The notes below the pieces were generated by a model, which saw only the letters and a program-made list of their open reading frames with translations, was not told where the DNA came from and did no database searches. Below are positions 6,540 through 59,011 of a stretch of DNA of 59,207 nucleotides, piece by piece. Position numbers and translations under genes: made by a program. How positions within the stretch are numbered: the first letter of the stretch is position 1; every line of letters starts with the position of its first letter. Location of the stretch: assembly GCA_001602845.1 (NCBI GenBank), contig LUZE01000164.1, positions 1 to 59,207 on the forward strand, in the 5' to 3' direction. This DNA is from Bacteroidales bacterium Bact_13 (GTDB lineage Bacteria; Bacteroidota; Bacteroidia; Bacteroidales; UBA932).

Positions 6540-6715
6540 CCGGATTCCCGCAGGCAGACGTTAAACAATCGTGACGGGCAGGTCTTCTGACTCGTTCCAG
6601 TGCGGCGCCTTCCCGGGGCTGGCCCAGTGGCAAAAAGAGAGCTGCGACAAAACAGGAACTTACAGCAGCGGGATCTGTCCGGGATTCGCACCCGGTTCCC
6701 TTAACCCGTCACGAC
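6540..6715 (-). promoter_or_regulatory. cobalamin (B12) riboswitch
   Basis: The minus strand reads GTGACGGGTTAAGGGAACCGGGTGCGAATCCCGGACAGATCCCGCTGCTGTAAG...TTTTTGCCACTGGGCCAGCCCCGGGAAGGCGCCGCAC...CCCGTCAC. This contains the AGGGAA / GGTG..AATCC / CCCGC.GCTGTAA core, the GCCACTG B12 box, GGGAAGGC, and a closing P1 helix GTGACGGG/CCCGTCAC (6705-6712 with 6571-6578). Confidence 0.85.
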
Positions 6716-6776
6716 ACAAAGATAGGATGTTCTCGTTAAAATAGCAAGCAAAAACAGCCGTAAACGCGGGGCACCG

Positions 6777-14816: not shown

Positions 14817-15051
14817 AAAACGCCTGCGCCGTCCCTCCTATCACGAAAGGCATGAGGGCGCCGCTTCTTCCCTTTCGCGTCAACTTTTTCCAGTGATAAG
14901 GCTGAATCCCGTCCGCGAAAGGCATCATATAGATGAATCTTCCCTTTCGTGACAGACAAATGAGATCAAACGTATTGTCTCCAACGCGCTGAACACTATT
15001 AGTGACGGTAGCGTCCCAACAAATGGGACGTTACCTGCACTCGGTTGTCGA

Positions 15052-15118
15052 GGGTTATCCTCGTCAGGGCGCTGCGGGACCCTCATTATCCCGCAGCAGC
15101 CCTGGCGGGAGATAACCC
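15052..15118. repeat. long imperfect hairpin (about 27 paired positions)
   Basis: GGGTTATCCTCGTCAGGGCGCTGCGGG - loop ACCCTCATTAT - CCCGCAGCAGCCCTGGCGGGAGATAACCC, paired by eye with two G-U pairs, one mismatch and one bulged A. It sits 45 nt upstream of the first island gene. Confidence 0.7.
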
Positions 15119-15162
15119 GCAAATCAGAAAAATGACTATTTTTGTTCTCAAATGCCTTTAAT

Positions 15163-15804
15163 ATGAACAAAATCCTTCTTATTTGCTTTTCCCTTTTATC
15201 CTTCCACAGCCTTTTTGCACAGGACATCATCCATACTGTAAGTGCTAAGACAATTGAAGCAAAAGTATTGGAAATCAGTGATACTGAAGTAACTTATAAA
15301 TTGTTCAACAACTTGGAAGGCCCAGTATTCAGAATGTCGACAGATAAAGTCTTCAAGATTGTCTTTGAGAACGGGACCGAATATTCCTTTGTAGAAGATG
15401 TGGTCAATCATGGGCTTGCTCCTGATGCCTCACTTCAAGAACTAACAGCCAAAGGCAACAATCTTCTGCTCATCTTTAATGATATGAACGGTAATTTCGA
15501 TGAAAAAGATGCATATCTAAAAGAGTTTCTTCGGGAAGATGGTCGCTGGAACCTGGTGGATATTCCAGCAGGAGCAGATTTCATTCTTTATGTTGAAGGA
15601 TACTCAAAGCGAACGGCCAAATCCTTTGCCAGCGATACCTATTTCATGACTCCAACCATCCGTCGGATGGACAATACAGATGTTTGGACAGGAATGACAG
15701 TAGATGCGTGTGCTAATGCTTTTAACGGTTATAGAGCTGTTAAAGCGGTGTCCAAGGCTCTTGTATTCGAATCTCTTCTTCGCGGTTTGGATAATGCCCA
15801 ATAG
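15163..15804 (+). CDS. hypothetical exported protein (low-GC island gene 1)
   Basis: ATG 15163 gives MNKILLICFSLLSFHSLFAQ, a signal peptide. The track ORF starts at TTG 15142. AT-rich codon usage contrasts with the flanks. I recognise no motif. Confidence 0.6.
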   Translation: MNKILLICFSLLSFHSLFAQDIIHTVSAKTIEAKVLEISDTEVTYKLFNNLEGPVFRMSTDKVFKIVFENGTEYSFVEDVVNHGLAPDASLQELTAKGNNLLLIFNDMNGNFDEKDAYLKEFLREDGRWNLVDIPAGADFILYVEGYSKRTAKSFASDTYFMTPTIRRMDNTDVWTGMTVDACANAFNGYRAVKAVSKALVFESLLRGLDNAQ

Positions 15805-15806
15805 TC

Positions 15807-15823
15807 CCCCGACCGGGCATTTG
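15807..15823. repeat. half-copy of the REP-like unit (CCCCGACCGGGCATTTG)
   Basis: Matches the right half of the 14429-14456 unit. It lies between island genes 1 and 2. Confidence 0.55.
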
Positions 15824-15857
15824 ATAACTTAGGTGTATGAATCAAAAATTATTTCAT

Positions 15858-16472
15858 ATGAAGAAATTAGTAGTATTCTCTATTATGTTGATTGCTGGCA
15901 CTTGTGCAGTATTTGCTCAGCCAGAATCAGATAATTATTTTCTTCCCGAAGATAGCAACGGTAGAGTCTTCATCAGCGGTGTAGTTGAGGTTCCGTATAG
16001 TGCCGACACGATCATCAGCCTTACGAAAGACTTCGAGGTGGAAATTGATCATTGGAAATATTGTGATACGAGCGATAAGTATTATGGCCTATCAAAGATT
16101 TCTTTTATTACAGAACTAGGTGTCGGAGAACGAGTTGTTGATCTTGGCATTGTCGGCGAAGTGACTAAACCCAAAAGCATCGTTAAGTTTCTGCTAACTC
16201 TGGAAGTTAGAGACGGTAAGTATCGTTACACAATGACGGACTTCAAGACGGAGCGCTGGCGTATTCGTGGCGATGGACCCGATGACGGCCCTTCAAACGA
16301 GATGCATCGGCAGCGGGTTGCCTGCATCAATGGGTATCCGAAGAAATATAAAGGCATTCCTCGCGAGGAGTATCTTGCAGAAGAAGAGGATAGCCTCAAG
16401 GCAGAGTATGAAGTCGTGATGAAATTCGTAAAGGAAGTGGAGAATATGTGTAATCGATTCAGTGATTTCTAA
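15858..16472 (+). CDS. hypothetical exported protein (low-GC island gene 2; possibly DUF4468-like)
   Basis: ATG 15858 gives MKKLVVFSIMLIAGTCAVFAQ, a signal peptide. About 204 aa. The family assignment is only an impression. Confidence 0.55.
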   Translation: MKKLVVFSIMLIAGTCAVFAQPESDNYFLPEDSNGRVFISGVVEVPYSADTIISLTKDFEVEIDHWKYCDTSDKYYGLSKISFITELGVGERVVDLGIVGEVTKPKSIVKFLLTLEVRDGKYRYTMTDFKTERWRIRGDGPDDGPSNEMHRQRVACINGYPKKYKGIPREEYLAEEEDSLKAEYEVVMKFVKEVENMCNRFSDF

Positions 16473-16538
16473 ACCACCCTGAACAAAAACTGCAGCAACT
16501 AATTTCGAGATACTACACGAAAACGGAATAGATTTACA

Positions 16539-17012
16539 ATGAAAAGATTATTATTGGTTTTAACGACTCTTTGTCTTTGTCATTGTTTATATGCACAATC
16601 ATCTTTGACCTATCGTGGTGGTAAGTTTTATGGTAATGACGGCCGTGTCTTGTCCGATGCTAATATGTTGAATCTGGTTGGCCGGGATGTTTATTACGAC
16701 ACGTACGTAGATGCCCGGAGACAGTTGAGGCTCGGCAAGACATTGGCTTTTACCGGCATTGGCGTTTTTTCGGCAGGATTAGCGGCCACTATCGTTGGCG
16801 CTTATACTGGTTATGATGCAATTTATTATAGCGGAGCCGCTGTTTCTGTTGTTGGCGGCGCGTTAATCGATGCCGGTATTCCCATTTGGGTTATTGGAAG
16901 TTCTCGACTTCACTGGATAGAATCGGATTACAATAAAAAACATGCTTCTGTCCAGGTACAACTGTCTCTTGTTGTCGTGAACAGAGGGATTGGATTATCG
17001 GCGCGGTTCTAA
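16539..17012 (+). CDS. hypothetical membrane protein (low-GC island gene 3)
   Basis: MKRLLLVLTTLCLCHCLYAQ signal peptide, then two hydrophobic Gly/Ala-rich helices (LAFTGIGVFSAGLAATIVGAY, AAVSVVGGALIDAGIPIWVIG). Confidence 0.55.
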   Translation: MKRLLLVLTTLCLCHCLYAQSSLTYRGGKFYGNDGRVLSDANMLNLVGRDVYYDTYVDARRQLRLGKTLAFTGIGVFSAGLAATIVGAYTGYDAIYYSGAAVSVVGGALIDAGIPIWVIGSSRLHWIESDYNKKHASVQVQLSLVVVNRGIGLSARF

Positions 17013-17160
17013 GTGTCAGTCGCGGAGCGCGGGCTGCGCGTTGGCCTGGTGGAGAGGTCACGGTTCCTCGTGGCGAGTGCTCGACAGCCACGAGGGCTCT
17101 GACCTCGCCAAAGGCAAAGCCCGCACAAGCAAAACGACGCTCCGTGGCGCGCCCAAGCAA
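17013..17160. repeat. GC-rich REP-like cluster at the right edge of the island
   Basis: Hairpin CCTCGTGGC-12 nt-GCCACGAGG flanked by GGTCA/TGACC. GGCGCGCC occurs at 17146-17153, within a segment resembling the reverse complement of the 14364-14395 repeat. Confidence 0.6.
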
Positions 17161-50647: not shown

Positions 50648-51317
<670 letters not shown>

Positions 51318-51343
<26 letters not shown>

Positions 51344-51839
51344 TGCCGGCACCACTTCGCTTGTGGGTGGCACGCGCGTCAGCAAGGCGCATCCGCGCGT
51401 GATGGCCTACGGGGACCTCGACGAACTGATCAGTTACCTCGGACTTCTCCGCTGTGAGACGGCCGGACGCGACCTTCCGCTCCGCCGGATCCAGATCCAG
51501 CTCATGAATGTGAGCGCCCATCTGGCAAATGACGGCCGCTCGGCCAAGCTCAAGCCGCTCGACGAGGCGGAGACGGCTTTCCTGGAAAGCGAGATCGACC
51601 GGATGACGGCGGCCCTTCCGCCGCAGACGGCATTCGTGCTGCCCGGCGAACCGCACGCCTCCTCGCTGGCCCATGTCGCCCGCACGGTATGCCGGAGGGC
51701 GGAACGGAGCGCCGTCCAGATCGAGGAGAAAACGGACCAGGACGCGCTGGCGATCCGGTATGTCAACCGCTTGAGTGACTACCTGTTTACATTGGCAAGA
51801 TACTTGTGCGACGGGCACGATGATAATTGGCTTCCGTAA
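51318..51839 (+). CDS. ATP:cob(I)alamin adenosyltransferase, PduO type
   Basis: Start ATG 51318 ([23 protein letters not shown]). About 173 aa. Confidence 0.85.
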
Positions 51840-51926: not shown

Positions 51927-52148
51927 ATGTATTGGACGCTTGAACTTGCATCCAAACTGGAGGATGCTCCGTGGCCTGCAACCCGGGAAGAACTGATTGA
52001 TTATGCAACTCGTTCGGGAGCTCCGCTCGAAGTGATCGAGAACCTGGAAGACCTCGAAGAAGACGGTGAGGTGTACGAATCCATCGAGGACATCTGGCCG
52101 GATTATCCGACCAAGGATGATTTCTTCTTCGACGAGGAGGAGTACTAG
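51927..52148 (+). CDS. DUF2795-like small acidic protein
   Basis: 73 aa. Sequence ...WPATREELIDYATRSGAPLEVIENLEDL.., with an acidic tail. Confidence 0.65.
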   Translation: MYWTLELASKLEDAPWPATREELIDYATRSGAPLEVIENLEDLEEDGEVYESIEDIWPDYPTKDDFFFDEEEY

Positions 52149-52165
52149 AAGTTCACCTTCTGGAC

Positions 52166-52582
52166 ATGAAACGTTTTTTGTGCATAATGTTCGCGGCGGC
52201 GGCGCTCCTGGCGTGGAGTGATGCCGCCGCGCAGCGTCTCCAGAACGGCAATTACAGTACCGTCGGCTATATCAAGAGCGACGGCACGATCCAGAACGGG
52301 AATTACAGTACCATCGGCCACATCAAGAATGACGGCACGGTCCAGGACGGCAATTACCGCACGGTGGGTTATATCAAGAGTGACGGTACGGTCCAGAACG
52401 GCAATTACAGTACCATCGGCCATATCAAAAGCGACGGGACGATTCAGGACGGCAACTACCGCACCATCGGCTACGTCAAGAGCGACGGCACGGTCCAGGA
52501 CGGCAACTACCGGACCATCGGCCATGCGGATTCCGGCATCCGGCGGGAATGGGTGGCATGGTTTTATTTCTTCATGAAATGA
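52166..52582 (+). CDS. secreted protein built from six tandem 17-residue repeats
   Basis: Signal peptide MKRFLCIMFAAAALLAWSDAAAQ, then six copies of Q(N/D)GNY(S/R)T(V/I)G(Y/H)IK(S/N)DGT(I/V), then an aromatic tail REWVAWFYFFMK. Confidence 0.7.
   Translation: MKRFLCIMFAAAALLAWSDAAAQRLQNGNYSTVGYIKSDGTIQNGNYSTIGHIKNDGTVQDGNYRTVGYIKSDGTVQNGNYSTIGHIKSDGTIQDGNYRTIGYVKSDGTVQDGNYRTIGHADSGIRREWVAWFYFFMK
52241..52537 (+). repeat. 51-nt tandem repeat, about 5.8 copies, coding
   Basis: Units start at 52241, 52292, 52343, 52394, 52445 and 52496. They are in frame with the CDS, and the differences are mostly synonymous or conservative. Confidence 0.9.
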
Positions 52583-52584
52583 AC

Positions 52585-53295
52585 ATGAAAAAGTTTCTCA
52601 TCTCCCTTTTCCTCCTGCTTGGCCTGGCGTTCTGTGCGCAGGCCCAGCACACGGCTTTTCTTGACAGCGAAGAAAACCTGGTTTACAGTGTCCGCCACAG
52701 TTATTTCCCGGGCAATGTCGGCACGATGACCTTCACCGGAAAGCAGAGCGGGTCGGACTACCACGTCGACGCCACGCTGCATGCTTCCATCGTCGGGCTG
52801 TACAAGCTCGACTGCACCTACGGATCGACTTTCCGCAGGGACGGGAGCCTGACCCCGGTCTCGGCCAACCGCAGCCAGACGGAGAACAAGTACTGGGCAA
52901 AGGGCACCTACAACTGGTCCGCGCCGGGTTCCGTCCATCTGTATGTGACGAAGAGCTCCCGCGACCCGCGCAACGAAGACCTCCTGTGGTCGGGTACCGT
53001 GCGCGACCTGCTCGGCATGCTCTGGTGGCTCCGTACGCTCGATTATGACAGCGGCAGCCTCGATGCTGGGCACAACGCGTTGCTGCTCGACCATACTGCG
53101 CTGCCCGTGACCATCACCTCGTACACAAAGGGTACCATGCGGTACAAAGGCGTCCAGACGCCTGTCATCGAGATCGTGCTAACGCAGCAGGGCAAAGAAG
53201 CGTTGAGCGTCACGCTTTCGGACGACGCCAGCCGCAAGATGCTGAAATTCTCGCTGGCCATGTCCGTCGGAACGATCCGCGGATCCTTGAAATAG
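52585..53295 (+). CDS. hypothetical exported protein (possibly DUF3108-like)
   Basis: ATG 52585 gives MKKFLISLFLLLGLAFCAQAQ. It starts 3 nt after the previous stop. Confidence 0.6.
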   Translation: MKKFLISLFLLLGLAFCAQAQHTAFLDSEENLVYSVRHSYFPGNVGTMTFTGKQSGSDYHVDATLHASIVGLYKLDCTYGSTFRRDGSLTPVSANRSQTENKYWAKGTYNWSAPGSVHLYVTKSSRDPRNEDLLWSGTVRDLLGMLWWLRTLDYDSGSLDAGHNALLLDHTALPVTITSYTKGTMRYKGVQTPVIEIVLTQQGKEALSVTLSDDASRKMLKFSLAMSVGTIRGSLK

Positions 53296-53301
53296 GGCAG
53301 C

Positions 53302-53727
53302 ATGATCCTTTCTGTTTCCTACGATGAAATCAGCAGGCTGGTGCGCGAGAAGAGCGGCCAGAGCATCGGCATCCGGTACAAGGATATCGACACGCTGACC
53401 CTTTCGTACGAGGCGACCATCCCGCTGCCGATCATCAACCGGCCGATTACGCATACCGTGTCGGCCGACGTCCGTATCGAAGAACTTGCACCGCCCCGCG
53501 TCGTGCTGCAGCTTGATGCCGGCAAGGCCGGGAACATGGCGCTCGACATGGCTTCCCAACGACTGCTGGCCAGGTTGCCGGCCGGGCTGGTGACGTCGTT
53601 CTCGGGCGGGCGCGCGGTACTGGACCTGTCCGCCGTACCGAAGCTTGCGAAGCTTCTGGATCGGTTGGAAATCAATAACTTGTCTTTCTATAGCAACTCG
53701 CTCGGCCTGGATGCCGTGCTCAAATGA
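53302..53727 (+). CDS. hypothetical cytoplasmic protein
   Basis: 141 aa with no signal peptide or TM segment and no recognisable motif. It is tightly packed between its neighbours (6-nt and 9-nt spacers). Confidence 0.5.
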   Translation: MILSVSYDEISRLVREKSGQSIGIRYKDIDTLTLSYEATIPLPIINRPITHTVSADVRIEELAPPRVVLQLDAGKAGNMALDMASQRLLARLPAGLVTSFSGGRAVLDLSAVPKLAKLLDRLEINNLSFYSNSLGLDAVLK

Positions 53728-53736
53728 CCGATACCC

Positions 53737-55491
53737 ATGATCCGTTTGGAAAACAATGCCCAGATCGGCCCCTACCGCGTGGAGCGGTTCATCAAGGACG
53801 GGATCTGCAACAGCAACTATGTGGTGTCCGACGGGGAGGGTGGACGTTTCTTTCTGAAAATATTTGATTTACAGGTCATCCCGGAAGCCTGGCTCGAGGG
53901 CGGGGAAGTGCGGGAGATCGTCAACAGCCGGGGGCTGGACCACCACAACGTGATCTCCTACGTGGCCGATGGGGAGCTGACGCTGGAAGGCCGGACCTAT
54001 CCGTACCTGGTGATGCAGTTCTTCAAGGGTTCGCTGCTGTCGGAGTTCCTGGCTGCCGGCCGGCAGTTCACCGGGGCGGAGATCCGGACCATCGCCTGCT
54101 TCGTGCTCGACGGCCTGGTGTACCTGCACGGGGAGGGCCTGCTGCACAATGACATCACGCCCCGCAACATCCTGCTTGAGGAGACAGGCGACGGCCTGGT
54201 GCCGAAGCTCATCGACCTGGGACATGCGAGCCCCGAAATCACGCAGGGCGAGCCGCCGTTCCCGATGGAGGACCTCAATCTGCTGTATACGGCGCCGGAG
54301 GCCCTGGACGGCATCTTCACGGAAGCCGGAGAGGCGTTCTCCGTGGCGGCGCTGGTCTTTACGCTGATTTGCGGGCAGGCGCCCTGGAGCATGCATTTTG
54401 ACGAGCAGGAACCGTTTGCGGCGCGGAAGGAGCGGATGAAGGAGGCCCGGCGGCGCGAGCCGGTGTGGCCCGCTGCCTTGCACGCCAGCGACCGGGTACT
54501 GCAGAACATCGTGCTAAAGGGGCTGAACATCTATCCGGCGAACCGTCCCACGCCTGCACGGATGCTGGAAATGCTGACCGGGGATGCCGTCGAGACGCGG
54601 CACCGGTCCGCAGACGCTTCCCGTTCAGCCGGCCCGAAGAAACCTTCGTCCGCGGGCGGCCTGGTGGCTACGACCGACGGCACGGAACTCAAGAAGACGA
54701 TGCAGCGGAACACCCGCAAGGGCGGGTTCGCCGACGTGGCGGGCATGGACGACCTGAAGAAGATGCTGACCGAACGGGTTATCTGGGTGTTGCGCGACCG
54801 GGAAAAGGCGAAGAAATACAGGCTTCTTCCGCCCAACGGCATGCTGCTCTACGGCCCTCCGGGCTGTGGCAAGACGTATTTCGCCGAGAAGTTCGCGGAG
54901 GAATCGCATTTCAACTACATGGTGGTCAACGGTTCAGATGTGGGCAGTACCTACATCCACGGTACGCAGGGCAAGATCGCGGCCCTCTTCCAGGAAGCAG
55001 CCTCCAAGGCGCCCACCGTGCTCTGTTTCGACGAGTTCGACTCGTTCGTCCCGGCCCGCGGCAGCGAGGCCGCCCGGCACCGGCCGGAAGAGGTCAACGA
55101 GTTCCTCTCGCAGCTCAACAACTGCGCCCAGCGCGGCATTTTCGTCATCGGCACGACCAACCGGATGGACATGATCGATCCGGCCGTCCTGCGCAAGGGC
55201 CGCCTCGACCTGCAGGTTGAAGTGCCGGCGCCCGAGAAGGAGACCCGGCGCCAGATGTTCATCCATCATCTGAAAGGCCGTCCGCTCGCCGACGACATTG
55301 ACCTTGAGCGGCTGGCTGAGCTGACCGACGGTTATGCGTCATCCGACATCGCCTTCATCGCCAACGACGCCGCCCTGGTCGCGGCGCTGGCTGACGAGCC
55401 GATCTCGCAGCGGCATCTGGAAGACTCCATCCGGTGCAATCCCTCGTCCCTGGGCCGCAAGGACAGCCGTTCTCCGATCGGCTACAGATAG
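53737..55491 (+). CDS. Ser/Thr protein kinase fused to a classical-clade AAA+ ATPase
   Basis: 584 aa. Kinase motifs: FFLKIF (Lys), LHNDITPRNILL (catalytic loop), IDLGHA (DFG-equivalent) and YTAPEAL (APE). AAA+ motifs: GPPGCGKTY (Walker A), VLCFDEFD (Walker B), IGTTNR (sensor 1) and DPAVLRKGRLD (second region of homology). Confidence 0.8.
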   Translation: MIRLENNAQIGPYRVERFIKDGICNSNYVVSDGEGGRFFLKIFDLQVIPEAWLEGGEVREIVNSRGLDHHNVISYVADGELTLEGRTYPYLVMQFFKGSLLSEFLAAGRQFTGAEIRTIACFVLDGLVYLHGEGLLHNDITPRNILLEETGDGLVPKLIDLGHASPEITQGEPPFPMEDLNLLYTAPEALDGIFTEAGEAFSVAALVFTLICGQAPWSMHFDEQEPFAARKERMKEARRREPVWPAALHASDRVLQNIVLKGLNIYPANRPTPARMLEMLTGDAVETRHRSADASRSAGPKKPSSAGGLVATTDGTELKKTMQRNTRKGGFADVAGMDDLKKMLTERVIWVLRDREKAKKYRLLPPNGMLLYGPPGCGKTYFAEKFAEESHFNYMVVNGSDVGSTYIHGTQGKIAALFQEAASKAPTVLCFDEFDSFVPARGSEAARHRPEEVNEFLSQLNNCAQRGIFVIGTTNRMDMIDPAVLRKGRLDLQVEVPAPEKETRRQMFIHHLKGRPLADDIDLERLAELTDGYASSDIAFIANDAALVAALADEPISQRHLEDSIRCNPSSLGRKDSRSPIGYR

Positions 55492-55627
55492 TATCCCTTT
55501 GCGCTACGATTTGTTCTAATCAGTTGATTTTTACAAAAAAAATTCGTAACTTGCCGAGTATTTTATAACAAACCGGGAAAAATTTGGATTTCTCCCGGAA
55601 ACGGCTAACGAAAAAACTGATTAGAAT

Positions 55628-57571
55628 ATGTTATTGGAGGAAGGTGCCCTTTTTGCAGAGCGGTATCAACTGGTCAAATTACTGGGTCGCGGCGGCTTTT
55701 CTGAAGTATGGCTGGCGAACGACACGAAATCCGGAGTAGATGTTGCCCTGAAGGTCTATGCCCCTTATGGCGGCCTGGACGAACACGGTAACCGGCTGTT
55801 CAGCCAGGAGTTCTCCCTGGTGTTCAACATCAACCAGACGAACCTGCTGAAACCGACTTATTTCGACACATACGAAAGATCCCCTTACCTGATTCTTCCG
55901 TACTGCGGCCGCGGTTCCGCGCTGGCCCTGGTCGGCAAGACCGACGAGAAGACGATGATCGACATCCTGCACGACGTGGCGGCCGGCCTGTCGTATCTGC
56001 ACGCCCAGGAGCCGCCCATCATCCACCAGGACATCAAGCCCGATAACATCTTGATCAACGATCATGGCGACTATGTGATCACGGACTTCGGCATCAGCAC
56101 GAAGATCCGGAGCACCCTCCGCCAGAGCGCGATGTCGCAGGAGAATTCGTCGGGCGGCACGTATGCCTACATGGCGCCGGAACGCTTCTCGAAAACCCCG
56201 ACTCCGATCCGCGCCAGCGATATATGGTCGATGGGCGCCATGGCTTATGAACTGCTGGACGGCAATCCGCCGTTCGACACGATGGGCGGCGTGATGCAGA
56301 AAAACGGCGCCGAGATCCCCGAGATCCGGGCCGACATTTCCGATACGGTCAAGAACATCATCTACGCCTGCGTCGCCCAGGAGCCCTGGGACCGTCCGAC
56401 GGCTGACACGGTCGTGGAATGGACGAACAAGCTGCGCGCCGGCGAATCCCTGAACCTGGGTGGCAAGGAGAAGAAGGGCCGTATCAACAACCTGTTCAAG
56501 CAGACCATCATGCGCGACGGCTCGAAGAAGAACAAGAAGGGGGCGACCCCTGAGCCGGCACCCGCACCGGTACCGGAACCGGCACCCGCACCGGAACAGC
56601 AGGATCCCGCTGCAGCGGCTCCCCAGCCGCAGGTCCGTTCGTTCATCGAGGATTCGAAGGGCGGTGCCAAATCTTCGCACGGCTCTTCACACGGTTCCTC
56701 GCACGGCGGTTCGCAGGGCGGGGGCATCAAGAACAAGCGCGGACTGCTCATCGGCATCATCGCTGCAGCCGTGGCCGTACTGGCCGTGATCATCGGCCTG
56801 GTGGTGTCGAACAAGAACAAGAAAGAACAGGCACAGCAGCAGGAAAGGGAACTCCGCAACCGGATCGAATATCTGGAAAGCAAGGTCTTCGACGACGATG
56901 CCGACGACCGTACCTTCCCGTGCACGGATGAAGAGACCGGTGCTACACTCAATTCGGCGAACTCGCTGTTCCACGATGCGATGCAGTTGCTTCGCGACGC
57001 CACGAAGGCGGAGGAAGGCGTGGAGATCCTCAAGCGGGTGTCCGACGCGGACTACCGCTCTTCGGCCAATGCGACGGCGATGCTGGGCTTCCTGACCGCC
57101 AAGAAGGACATCGTCCGTCTCGACGAGGACGACCAGCCGGTCCTGGACGAGAACGGACAGCCCGAATACCTGCTTGACTCCCTGTACCGGGCGTATGGCA
57201 GCAAGTTCAAGACCGCTGCCTGCCTGCCGGTCGATCCCGCCGCTTCGCACCGCTACAGCGAAAAGGCGCTCGAGCAGGATCCCAAGTGCTACATGGCCCA
57301 TTACGAGATGGCGCTGGATTACTGGTTCGGTTCCAACTCCAAACGGACGGAATACGGCCGTGACGTGATCAAGGCGACCATCCACATTTTCCGCGGCCGC
57401 AAGTATGCCCGCGAGGCGCAGGACGAGATCTACATGAAGTGGTTCGACAACCTGTATGAGAAGTACGACTGGGCGTACGTGGTCAAGGAAGAGATCAATA
57501 CGAAGTTCAAGAGGGACGACCTGACAGACATCTGGGACGACCTGATGGAAGTGGTTAAAGGTGGACAATAA
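55628..57571 (+). CDS. transmembrane receptor Ser/Thr protein kinase with a helical-repeat extracytoplasmic domain
   Basis: 647 aa. Motifs LGRGGFSEVW (Gly loop), VALKVY, IIHQDIKPDNILI, ITDFGIS and YMAPE. A Pro/Ala-rich and SSHG-repeat linker follows, then a TM helix LLIGIIAAAVAVLAVIIGLVV, then a roughly 260-aa C-terminal domain with a Sel1/TPR-like feel. Confidence 0.85.
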   Translation: MLLEEGALFAERYQLVKLLGRGGFSEVWLANDTKSGVDVALKVYAPYGGLDEHGNRLFSQEFSLVFNINQTNLLKPTYFDTYERSPYLILPYCGRGSALALVGKTDEKTMIDILHDVAAGLSYLHAQEPPIIHQDIKPDNILINDHGDYVITDFGISTKIRSTLRQSAMSQENSSGGTYAYMAPERFSKTPTPIRASDIWSMGAMAYELLDGNPPFDTMGGVMQKNGAEIPEIRADISDTVKNIIYACVAQEPWDRPTADTVVEWTNKLRAGESLNLGGKEKKGRINNLFKQTIMRDGSKKNKKGATPEPAPAPVPEPAPAPEQQDPAAAAPQPQVRSFIEDSKGGAKSSHGSSHGSSHGGSQGGGIKNKRGLLIGIIAAAVAVLAVIIGLVVSNKNKKEQAQQQERELRNRIEYLESKVFDDDADDRTFPCTDEETGATLNSANSLFHDAMQLLRDATKAEEGVEILKRVSDADYRSSANATAMLGFLTAKKDIVRLDEDDQPVLDENGQPEYLLDSLYRAYGSKFKTAACLPVDPAASHRYSEKALEQDPKCYMAHYEMALDYWFGSNSKRTEYGRDVIKATIHIFRGRKYAREAQDEIYMKWFDNLYEKYDWAYVVKEEINTKFKRDDLTDIWDDLMEVVKGGQ

Positions 57572-57583
57572 GAGAAGTACAAT

Positions 57584-59011
57584 ATGAAGACATTCAAACG
57601 ATTGCTGCTCGTGTTCGCGGCGCTCGGCCTCTGCCTGGGCCTGTCGGCGCAAACCGTAAAATGGGAGTACAAGTGCGGGTATGACGGCGTCCGCCGCCTG
57701 AATTCGGACTATCTCCTGCTCCAGAAAGACAACAACATCGAGATCCGGCAGAACGACGGAAAGGTCGTCCTGGAAATCAAGGCCGACGTGCTCACCGATT
57801 TCGTGAACGGCTTTGCGCTGGTGCTCGACGCGGAGCCCACGGATACGGAAACCCTTTACCGGCTGGTCGGCTTCTTCTCGGAAGACGGCGTTTACCAGGA
57901 GACGAAACAAAAGAATTACTACGTCGACCGGTATCCTTTCTTCTCGGACGGCTTCCTTCCGGTGTATATCCTGGACAAGGGAGACAAGAAGTACGGCTTT
58001 ATCGACAAGTACCTGAATGCCGGCGAGCTCAAATATGTCGACATCCTCCCGGTCGTGGGCGGTGGCGCCTATGCCTGCGAGATGGGCAAGAAGGGCAAGA
58101 CGAAATGGGTGCAGGCCAATCCGGCCGGCGGCAAGGGAAAGGTCAAGGCGAAGCAGGAAGCTGTCGCACAGCAATTCGCCGGCAGGGAACACCTTGCGGA
58201 ATACCTTCCCGAAATCCAGAAAGGACCGGAACTGACCCTTGAACCGGGCATCCAGGTGGTGGAAGAGAACGGCCTGTACGGCTACAAGCGGGCGGATGGC
58301 GTATGGATCGCACCGCCTCAGTTCACGCGGGCGGAACCCTTCTCGGACGGCCTTGCCGTGGTGGAGAACAACCAGGGCATGGGTGTGATCCGGATGTATG
58401 AAGGAACCGTCGTCTGCACCCAGGAACCGGGCGGCATGACGGACTCCGGCTACCAGTCGACTGTCTTCAATGTGACGTTGCCTCCCATTTTCAACGACAA
58501 TATCGTTTCGCTCCGGTGCCTGTTCCAGGATGAGACGAGGAACACAAAGTTCCCGATCAACCTCAAGCCGGTCGAAGACGACCCGACCGTTCGTACGACG
58601 GATGTGATCACCGTCGATGCGGATGCGAAAACCGTCGAGATCACTTCCGAGAACCTGGTGATCGGCCGGCAGTTCTTCGAGAAGAACGTTCCCGAGGACC
58701 TCGATGCCGTCAAGATCGGCCTGTCGGCGTCCAAGGTGCGTGCCGGTTCGAACGACCGGGCCAAGGTGACTGTCACGGTGACCAACACCTCGGATGAGAC
58801 GCTGGTGCTGAATGCGCATGCCAGCGGCAAGAACGTGACGCTCTCGCGCTCGAAACTGACGGTCAAGCCCCGTGGAAGTCAGTCGTTCGTGGTGACCTTC
58901 AGCAACGTCCGTTCCGCCGGTGCCCGCAGTATCACGGTGTCGGGTGAAACCGACAAGAAAGTCAAGGTCAAGGCCAAGTCTGCCAACGTTCAGGTCACGC
59001 CGTTCTTATAG
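57584..59011 (+). CDS. exported WG-repeat (KWG-like) protein with a C-terminal Ig-like region
   Basis: 475 aa. Signal peptide MKTFKRLLLVFAALGLCLGLSAQ. WG-type repeats KKYGFIDKYLN and GLYGYKRADGVWIAPPQFTRAEPFSDGLAVVENNQGMGVI. C-terminal beta-sandwich-like region ..KVTVTVTNTSDETLVL. Confidence 0.75.
   Translation: MKTFKRLLLVFAALGLCLGLSAQTVKWEYKCGYDGVRRLNSDYLLLQKDNNIEIRQNDGKVVLEIKADVLTDFVNGFALVLDAEPTDTETLYRLVGFFSEDGVYQETKQKNYYVDRYPFFSDGFLPVYILDKGDKKYGFIDKYLNAGELKYVDILPVVGGGAYACEMGKKGKTKWVQANPAGGKGKVKAKQEAVAQQFAGREHLAEYLPEIQKGPELTLEPGIQVVEENGLYGYKRADGVWIAPPQFTRAEPFSDGLAVVENNQGMGVIRMYEGTVVCTQEPGGMTDSGYQSTVFNVTLPPIFNDNIVSLRCLFQDETRNTKFPINLKPVEDDPTVRTTDVITVDADAKTVEITSENLVIGRQFFEKNVPEDLDAVKIGLSASKVRAGSNDRAKVTVTVTNTSDETLVLNAHASGKNVTLSRSKLTVKPRGSQSFVVTFSNVRSAGARSITVSGETDKKVKVKAKSANVQVTPFL

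Follow-up and report, generated by a model that had tools for sequence, protein, structure and literature searches.

What might a bacterium do with a protein that carries a kinase domain and an AAA+ module on a single polypeptide? This question is raised by a gene at 53737..55491 (+) of contig LUZE01000164.1 from Bacteroidales bacterium Bact_13 (GCA_001602845.1), which encodes a fusion of a Hanks-type Ser/Thr kinase to a classical-clade AAA module; we analysed it within the whole 59,207-nt stretch of the contig (the window). We propose, at about even probability, that the protein is an AAA unfoldase of the classical clade whose C-terminal tail docks on ClpP and whose kinase or kinase-like head selects, and perhaps phosphorylates, substrates. 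What is new here would lie less in the combination of a kinase and an AAA module than in a kinase-headed classical AAA motor that ends in an IGF-type tail and is linked to ClpP.

The gene starts at an ATG and encodes 584 amino acids (aa) plus a stop codon, as supported by the listing of open reading frames (ORFs), Pfam and full-length homologues. The first-pass annotation, made from the letters of the DNA, had described a single 584-aa ORF joining two modules, and the ORF is found as described. So are the motifs it quoted: FFLKIF at residue 38 (with Lys41), LHNDITPRNILL at 136, DLG at 160, TAPE at 185 and a degenerate Gly-rich loop, IKDGICNSNYVV, at 19 in the kinase, and GPPGCGKT at 373, VLCFDEFD at 428, TTN at 473 and DPAVLRKGRLD at 481 in the AAA half. 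The Pfam search that it recommended matched both Pkinase (PF00069; residues 58-278, E 2.7e-24, 86.4 bits vs a cutoff of 31.7) and AAA (PF00004; residues 369-497, E 2.5e-33, 115.8 bits vs 21.2), with AAA_lid_3 below threshold at residues 520-551 (26.1 bits vs 27.2). Its domain calls, a non-RD Hanks kinase, a linker and one classical-clade AAA module, are right by Pfam and by sequence and fold matches. The protein was also correctly placed in the cytoplasm, with no transmembrane segment: its top 19-residue Kyte-Doolittle mean is 1.63, from the buried kinase alpha-F helix, compared with 3.12 for the real transmembrane segment of the next gene's product.

An AlphaFold2 (AF2) model, built from an alignment of 87 homologues, resolves the chain into four regions: the kinase domain (residues 1-285; 53737..54591, +), with a predicted local distance difference test (pLDDT) above 90; a flexible linker (residues 286-336; 54592..54744, +), with pLDDT below 50; the AAA module with its helical lid (residues 337-570; 54745..55446, +); and a flexible, low-confidence C-terminal tail (residues 571-584, ...L-G-R-K-D-S-R-S-P-I-G-Y-R; 55447..55488, +). 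The linker is rich in A/G/T/S/R/K, predicted to be disordered, and variable in sequence and length across the alignment. In Foldseek comparisons with solved structures the N-terminal half matches M. tuberculosis PknB (target TM-score 0.82-0.84, rmsd about 3 Å), the C-terminal half superposes on p97 D2 and FtsH, and no chain spans both halves; by sequence, the AAA half matches p97 D2 at 1e-82. A Pfam score above the gathering threshold, a confident AF2 fold and the PknB match, along with residues that are invariant in the window's clade, all identify a bilobal kinase domain. Because the predicted TM-score (pTM) is 0.52, the model gives no fixed orientation of kinase and AAA module.

The first-pass annotation had allowed that the ORF might be an assembly artefact joining two genes. 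Hundreds of independent full-length copies, with the same two-domain architecture on many independent contigs, rule this out. A word-indexed search gave at least 120 protein clusters with identities of 53-99% and 100% query coverage, all with Pkinase plus AAA; the architecture is present in 71 of 71 complete genes from metagenomes; and among the best 150 50%-identity clusters of an exhaustive search over 1.84 billion representatives, 78 are kinase-AAA proteins with lengths of about 560-625 aa, and 3 more were shown to be kinase-AAA by Pfam. A scan of genome contigs with generic Walker A patterns gave, among the matches listed, at least about 11 full-length fusions. A look-up by exact sequence gave no match for the window protein. 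One copy, 99% identical, lies in assembly GCA_024712465.1, and full-length members occur in Muribaculaceae, Prevotella, Ca. Egerieisoma, unclassified Bacteroidales, Phocaeicola vulgatus, uncultured Bacteroides, Flavobacteriales, Daejeonella (Sphingobacteriales) and other Bacteroidota, with one in Flexilinea (Chloroflexota).

Names in the source databases are generic ("AAA family ATPase", "ATPases of the AAA+ class", "transitional endoplasmic reticulum ATPase"), one reads "protein kinase domain-containing protein", and the family is therefore invisible to annotation-based studies. Our literature searches turned up no account of the kinase-AAA architecture, and a term search of the main text of a 42-family atlas of bacterial Ser/Thr kinases did not return it. 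The earlier remark that no characterised bacterial example was known agrees with this result; of the accompanying caveat, that the fusion might belong to a widespread and already characterised family, "widespread" proved right and "characterised" did not. The fusion is thus a real, uncharacterised family centred on Bacteroidota.

Judged by residue conservation, the motor is the constant part of this family. The AAA module of the window protein has Walker A at 373-380, the pore loop S-T-Y-I-H-G at 404-409, Walker B at 428-435, sensor-1 TTN at 473-475 and Arg fingers R486 and R489; Walker A and B, the sensor-1 Asn and a second region of homology with two Arg fingers together mark the classical AAA clade. 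We took a family-wide census of 87 diverse members, in which the assignments for the most distant sequences hinge on how they are aligned. The Walker A Lys is kept in 87/87, the Walker B Asp-Glu and the sensor-1 Asn in 86/87 each, and the Arg fingers in 85/87. The pore loop, Y406-I-H408-G409, is a variant of the aromatic-hydrophobic-Gly pattern with one extra residue; its aromatic residue is kept in 82/87, the His in 72/87 and the Gly in 69/87. This pattern fits an active, threading ATPase. Residues 459-463 (window 55111-55125) read Q-L-N-N-C, with Q459, L460, N461 and C463 invariant and N462 kept in at least 90%; in classical AAA proteases and Cdc48 the equivalent site is occupied by '...DGF', a motif for signalling between subunits. 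Together with the extra pore-loop His, this sequence suggests altered subunit coupling or substrate grip.

The earlier domain reading was incomplete in that it overlooked the C-terminal tail, the ClpP and YbjN-like neighbours, and the alternative N-termini of related proteins, which are the most telling features. The window protein ends in ...R-S-P-I-G-Y-R. Family members share a tail made of a basic stretch, then [IV]-G-[FY], then 0-3 residues (rarely up to 13). In the exhaustive search, [ILVM]G[FY] falls within the last 14 residues of 63 of the 78 kinase-AAA representatives, where by our own estimate chance would give about 1-2%; among the non-kinase hits it occurs in 14 of 72, about 11 of which belong to the same AAA subfamily, and it is essentially missing from multi-domain Cdc48-type hits. 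All 71 complete metagenome copies have it within their last 16 aa. Across 48 sequences at 32-50% identity, the tail Gly (G582) is among only 16 invariant columns, in the company of the Walker A Lys and the Walker B Asp-Glu. Low pLDDT values mark the tail as disordered in the AF2 model.

A flexible element with an [ILVM]-G-[FL(Y)] tripeptide, here I581-G582-Y583 (55477-55485, +), is what a Clp-type docking element consists of, and we propose this tripeptide as the ClpP-docking site. HbYX tails of PAN and Cdc48 insert into pockets of the 20S proteasome; a tail of that type is excluded by the invariant Gly before the Tyr/Phe and by the 0-13 residues that follow the motif. The tripeptide consensus is IGF in ClpX and IGL in ClpA. 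Clp ATPases dock on the hydrophobic (H-) pockets of ClpP via flexible loops with conserved tripeptides (PMC8745299). Since a genuine ClpX, at locus L015, has MGY at the IGF-loop position, a Tyr in the tripeptide lies within natural variation.

The tail also outlives the kinase. Of 61 members that lack an intact kinase signature, 53 retain it, and the AAA-plus-tail module occurs with non-kinase N-termini in five proteins of 418-474 aa that have no Pfam N-domain. Acidobacteriota AAA-plus-tail proteins end in TRTIGFRA and HTRIGFRP, and the same tail ends a double-AAA protein and a TPR-plus-two-AAA protein. Because the tail persists through kinase decay and occurs without a kinase, AAA plus tail forms the core and the N-domain can be exchanged, as a substrate selector would be expected to allow. 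As an observation beyond the fusion itself, C-terminal [IVM]-G-F is found on other classical-AAA architectures (double, TPR plus two, and triple AAA) and on single-AAA Acidobacteriota proteins with unassigned N-domains; by their sequences, IGF-tailed classical AAA proteins may form a broader, unrecognised group.

We compared 14 genome and 80 metagenome loci; the latter were found with a kinase-only alignment (family-specific patterns), and that sample is biased toward intact HND loops. In the 46 clusters (dereplicated at 90% identity) with enough downstream sequence, the immediately downstream gene on the same strand encodes a YbjN-like protein of ~126 aa in 23, ClpP in 6, an acyl-ACP thioesterase in 6, and a protein matching no probe in 11. 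Where ClpP is linked, its gene lies 5-120 nt downstream on the same strand. The spacing is 5-15 nt in Prevotella (L010) and Ca. Egerieisoma (L011), the latter with the order YbjN-like, fusion, ClpP. The linked ClpP proteins are of two types. One is canonical, sharing about 50% identity with E. coli ClpP and about 62% with a housekeeping ClpP; the other is a divergent paralogue with about 40% identity to E. coli ClpP. The Ser/His/Asp motifs are intact in both, and no clpX occurs within 7 kb of either. The two types imply at least two independent linkage events. Further, the two fusions that adjoin the divergent ClpP are the ones with deviant tails (...IKGL and ...VNGL), so tail and partner change together.

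The YbjN-like gene, adjacent to the fusion in 7 of the 14 genome loci, encodes a protein with weak likeness to the YbjN/type-III-chaperone-like family (Pfam E 0.03-0.06). A distant subfamily of fusions (L014, L015, L017, and P. vulgatus at L168 113-10242) sits in cassettes with Hsp70, GrpE, a J-domain-like protein and often a TerB-like protein; these cassettes also hold a LysM/zinc-ribbon protein, together with a 1457-aa protein without a Pfam match and/or the TerB-like one. The subfamily, the P. vulgatus fusion included, has an HNE catalytic loop and retains its IGF tail, and the P. vulgatus cassette lies beside ParA, SSB, DUF6577 and AbiEii in a setting that resembles a mobile element. The cassettes may represent a distinct chaperone-coupled or conflict system.

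Taken with the conserved tail, the linkage to ClpP leads us to propose a soluble, ring-forming AAA+ unfoldase of the Cdc48-D2/FtsH/PAN-like clade that has acquired two accessories. The first would be the tail, whose basic stretch and [IV]-G-[FY] would enter the hydrophobic pockets of ClpP, as the IGF and IGL loops of ClpX and ClpA do, with docking from the C-terminus, as for the HbYX tails of PAN and Cdc48 on the 20S proteasome. The second would be the Hanks kinase, which on its ~50-residue tether takes the usual site of the substrate- or adaptor-binding N-domain of AAA proteins and would pick the client. In clades where it is intact, the window's included, the kinase would probably also phosphorylate the client or the machine ('mark and destroy'). 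The client would be threaded through the aromatic pore loops of a putative hexamer and handed to ClpP. In most lineages the YbjN-like neighbour could be an adaptor, anti-adaptor or client; in the window's clade, a 141-aa orphan protein may replace it. A bolder claim, that the fusion is the first of a new class of ClpP-activating ATPases in which a classical-clade ring with an IGF-type tail uses a Hanks kinase of its own to phospho-mark a client, or itself, and hands the client to the protease, so that one polypeptide provides tag-and-degrade, seems to us tentative and rather doubtful.

Several points weigh against docking on ClpP. The connection of the fusion to ClpP is one of genomic linkage, and binding is putative. 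ClpP adjacency is confined to a minority of lineages (about 13%), neither clpP nor clpX occurs in the 59,207-nt window, and the neighbourhood counts, drawn largely from rumen and gut metagenomes, are phylogenetically non-independent. The E. coli ClpP and ClpX sequences used in these comparisons served as probes only. The canonical linked ClpP could be the housekeeping copy, there by chance and inherited in one clade, and what the tail binds could be the YbjN-like protein, the commonest neighbour. With its Tyr and a single residue beyond it, the tail of the window's clade also looks like one of the HbYX or cofactor-binding type. To our knowledge, the known ClpP partners (ClpX, ClpA, ClpC, ClpE) all come from one AAA+ clade, other than that of the fusion, and dock via an internal loop.

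These points bear on a second explanation, to which we give a modest chance: that the fusion is a ClpP-independent remodeller or segregase, like p97, Vps4 or ClpB, whose hexamer would unfold or pull out clients that are not then degraded and whose tail recruits the YbjN-like protein or another cofactor. The C-terminal tail of p97 recruits PUB/PUL-domain cofactors in this way. The prevalence of the YbjN-like gene as immediate neighbour and the lack of clpP near the fusion in the window and many relatives speak for a remodeller, and the Hsp70/GrpE/J-domain cassettes of the distant subfamily fit refolding better than degradation. A remodeller would not account, however, for the match of the tail to the ClpP-docking consensus, for the position of ClpP as the next gene in two independent lineages, or for a tail that deviates exactly beside a divergent ClpP paralogue; moreover, the tail is equally conserved without a YbjN-like neighbour, the window's clade included.

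In the state of the kinase the family is divided. The window protein has all five phosphotransfer residues (K41, E60, D139, N144, D160). In its clade (87 sequences, 54-84% identical), K41, E60, H137-N-D139, N144, D160, P187 and R270 are invariant, and L161, G162, A186 and E188 are kept in at least 90% of the alignment. The catalytic loop, H137-N-D-I-T-P-R-N144 (HNDxxPRN; 54145..54168, +), is invariant in the window-clade alignments. The domain departs from a canonical RD kinase, with HND at 137-139 in place of HRD, Arg at D+4, no Lys at D+2 and no GxGxxG loop; in the corresponding loop, FIKDGICNSNY, only G22, N25 and Y28 are conserved. On these residues, the kinase of the window's clade is predicted to be catalytically competent.

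Elsewhere it is often degenerate. Over the 87 diverse members of the census, the catalytic Asp is kept in 40 (and replaced by Asn in 17, Glu in 16, Gly in 6 and Ala in 4), the DFG Asp in 60, and the full set of five in 26. The beta-3 Lys, alpha-C Glu, catalytic-loop Asn, APE Glu and alpha-H/I Arg are for the most part still present, and HNE loops are legible directly in several sequences, the P. vulgatus protein among them. Many members are predicted from these replacements to be pseudokinases, perhaps with nucleotide binding retained. Because the AAA residues are invariant and the kinase residues are often lost, the shared function of the family cannot depend on phosphotransfer.

This decay tells against an improbable third explanation, in which the kinase is the output and the AAA ring its scaffold or regulator, through trans-activation among six kinases or remodelling-gated access to substrates. 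Being non-RD, the kinase needs some control besides phosphorylation of its activation loop, and this, the invariant phosphotransfer residues of the window's clade and the kinase/FHA/PP2C signalling island that adjoins the gene in this genome would favour such a reading. Against this stand the existence of the AAA-plus-tail module without a kinase, the lack of a fixed kinase-AAA interface across a 50-residue disordered tether, and the restriction of the island to one lineage (0 of 80 metagenome loci). The hexamer-scaffolded kinase activation suggested in the first-pass annotation is a kinase-centred idea of this sort and fares poorly next to a motor and tail that are essentially invariant.

Least probable is an anti-phage or conflict component, a kinase-plus-ATPase effector like IetA, PD-T4-6 or the MADS kinases, which domain-level PADLOC matches (IetA 1.4e-28, mad6 1.6e-28, PD-T4-6 5.8e-24) and the apparent mobile element around the P. 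vulgatus homologue would favour, but the similarity is generic to AAA and kinase domains and far under the NCBIfam cutoffs (IetA 92 vs 510 bits, MAD6 57 vs 460 bits), no IetS-type protease or other system partner is present, neither the neighbours nor the cassette partner proteins match a PADLOC model, the neighbours in the window's clade are housekeeping genes, and the PADLOC comparison of the fusion and its partners thus gives no support for a known defence system.

The window's own neighbourhood adds one candidate. The fusion had been described as the last gene of a tightly spaced five-gene string (51927-55491); its spacers measure 17, 2, 6 and 9 nt, as stated, provided that the DUF3108 gene begins at the ATG at 52585, and the string is not a conserved unit. 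In the neighbourhood comparison that had been recommended, relatives either have the beta-flower and DUF3108 genes on the opposite strand or lack them, and DUF2795, beta-flower and DUF3108 show no consistent linkage or shared orientation there, which excludes the five-gene operon as a functional unit. The neighbour that does stay is the 141-aa gene at 53302..53727 (+), 9 nt upstream of the fusion gene, and it does so only in the window's clade (L001, L090, L091, L101, L103, L104, L113). Its family comprises 73 clusters, all Bacteroidales 'hypothetical protein' entries without a Pfam domain. The AF2 model is alpha/beta (pLDDT 86, pTM 0.74), and Foldseek found no significant neighbour for it in the PDB (best E 0.2, TM-score <0.4), so that, going by the model, the protein may have an undescribed fold. 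A diverged YbjN-like partner is excluded by an hhalign probability of 0.2%. We regard the 141-aa protein as a candidate partner or substrate of the fusion.

Downstream of the fusion gene lies an AT-rich gap of 136 nt (55492-55627). It contains a hairpin with a stem of 11 bp (55573-55598) and a long-range inverted repeat of 13 bp, whose arms are at about 55513-55525 and 55615-55627 and which extends to the start codon of the next kinase gene. The RNA fold z-score is -2.84; the element may be a terminator and/or serve translational control. A sigma-70 promoter scan is uninformative for Bacteroidota. The next genes encode a transmembrane Ser/Thr kinase of 647 aa (55628-57571, +; canonical Pkinase, E 4.7e-42; one strong transmembrane helix near residues 375-393; C-terminal region helical) and a secreted WG-repeat/Ig-like protein (57584-59011, +). 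In the 99% relative (L001, 9892-17649) this signalling island continues with genes for a double-zinc-ribbon protein, a kinase-FHA protein, an FHA protein, a small putative lipoprotein and a PP2C. It is found in the window and L001 and in none of the 80 related metagenome loci, and is therefore a lineage-specific insertion, separating the fusion gene from the acyl-ACP thioesterase gene that comes after it in relatives. With this restricted distribution, the kinase/WG-repeat/FHA/PP2C island is excluded as a conserved partner system.

Other features of the window are recorded for completeness. The five-fold beta-flower protein (138 aa, secreted; 52166-52582, +; Pfam Bflower_2, E 5e-36) consists almost entirely of ~15-16-residue repeats (…DGT[IV]Q[ND]GNY[SR]T[IV]G[YH]IK[SN]…), and its gene is paired with the DUF3108 gene in the window and in relatives; the fold was first reported from mining of the AlphaFold database (PMC10584680). 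A PduO-type cobalamin adenosyltransferase gene (51252-51839) lies just upstream of the five-gene string, and a cobalamin riboswitch lies at 6560-6724 (-; Rfam RF00174, 97.8 bits). A low-GC island at ~14900-17100 (GC about 0.43 vs about 0.60 for the rest of the contig) holds three same-strand ORFs without Pfam matches (15142-15804, 15837-16472, 16539-17012) and was probably acquired horizontally.

If our proposal is true, a classical-clade motor with a C-terminal IGF-type tail breaks the rule that ClpP partners are HCLR-clade proteins with internal docking loops, and the proteasome-style tail and the Clp-style tripeptide prove to be combinable solutions. It would also provide the first hard-wired bacterial link from Ser/Thr phosphorylation to ATP-dependent unfolding or degradation. 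On the bolder claim, tag-and-degrade would have evolved independently of McsB-ClpCP and of ubiquitin-proteasome logic, with relatives showing all stages of decay from kinase to pseudokinase and the tailed motor reused with other N-domains in other phyla. The family also presents, on one and the same motor, a natural gradation of heads from putatively active kinase to pseudokinase. It is abundant in gut and rumen Bacteroidota, and because these include the cultivable and genetically tractable Phocaeicola vulgatus, the hypothesis is directly testable.

How does the fusion compare with known systems? It belongs to none of the established families that it resembles. Membership in Cdc48/p97/VAT is excluded by its one AAA module where they have two in tandem (D1, D2), a kinase where they have CDC48_N, and a TIGR01243 score of 182.7 bits vs 802.65; in FtsH, by the lack of a transmembrane segment and an M41 peptidase domain (165.5 bits vs a cutoff of 600); in PAN, by a score far below cutoff and missing defining domains; and in IetA, by 92.4 bits vs a cutoff of 510 for NF042959 and no neighbouring IetS protease. 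IetA, of the IetAS system, shares a single classical AAA module with the fusion and is its best PADLOC match, whereas the fusion has no IetS partner and, in the window's clade, no defence-island context. PknB-type Hanks kinases share the fold and, with the window's clade, the residues K, E, D, N and D. They differ in that the fusion has HND, Arg at D+4, no Gly-rich loop, no conserved activation-loop Ser/Thr, and no transmembrane or PASTA sensor, and is joined to an AAA module.

Like ClpX, ClpA and ClpC, the fusion would be a ring AAA+ unfoldase with an exchangeable N-terminal substrate or adaptor domain; it carries a basic stretch with [IVM]-G-[FYL] on a flexible element, and has clpP adjacent in some lineages. 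Unlike them, its AAA module is classical-clade (best matches p97 D2, FtsH and PAN) and not HCLR, its tripeptide is on a C-terminal tail and not an internal loop, and its N-domain is a kinase and not a zinc-binding or Clp_N domain. It is no member of these families, but by analogy may work like one. With PAN, Rpt and Cdc48 on the 20S proteasome, and with Cpa, the fusion shares a classical AAA module and a flexible C-terminal tail that would enter pockets of a peptidase ring and in the window's clade has a penultimate Tyr (…IGYR). It differs in its single putative AAA ring, in lacking CDC48_N or a coiled-coil/OB N-domain, and in a motif that, unlike HbYX, is 0 to 13 residues from the C-terminus; we also know of no 20S proteasome in Bacteroidota. 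Cpa is the Cdc48-like protein of actinobacteria (PMC6017811).

In McsB-ClpCP, a separate arginine kinase labels proteins for ClpCP (PMC8370763). The likeness to McsB-ClpC-ClpP of Gram-positive bacteria (PMC8370763; bioRxiv 10.1101/2022.09.15.508104) is in the proposed logic, in which a kinase marks or selects clients for an unfoldase that feeds ClpP. McsB is a separate arginine kinase of the phosphagen-kinase type, whereas the fusion has a Hanks kinase on the motor polypeptide; and the phospho-mark of McsB is read by the ClpC N-domain. In many relatives of the fusion the kinase is predicted to be dead. The closest analogues of the fusion would thus be McsB-ClpCP in working logic, ClpX and ClpA in the tripeptide, and PAN, Cdc48 and Cpa in the topology of the tail.

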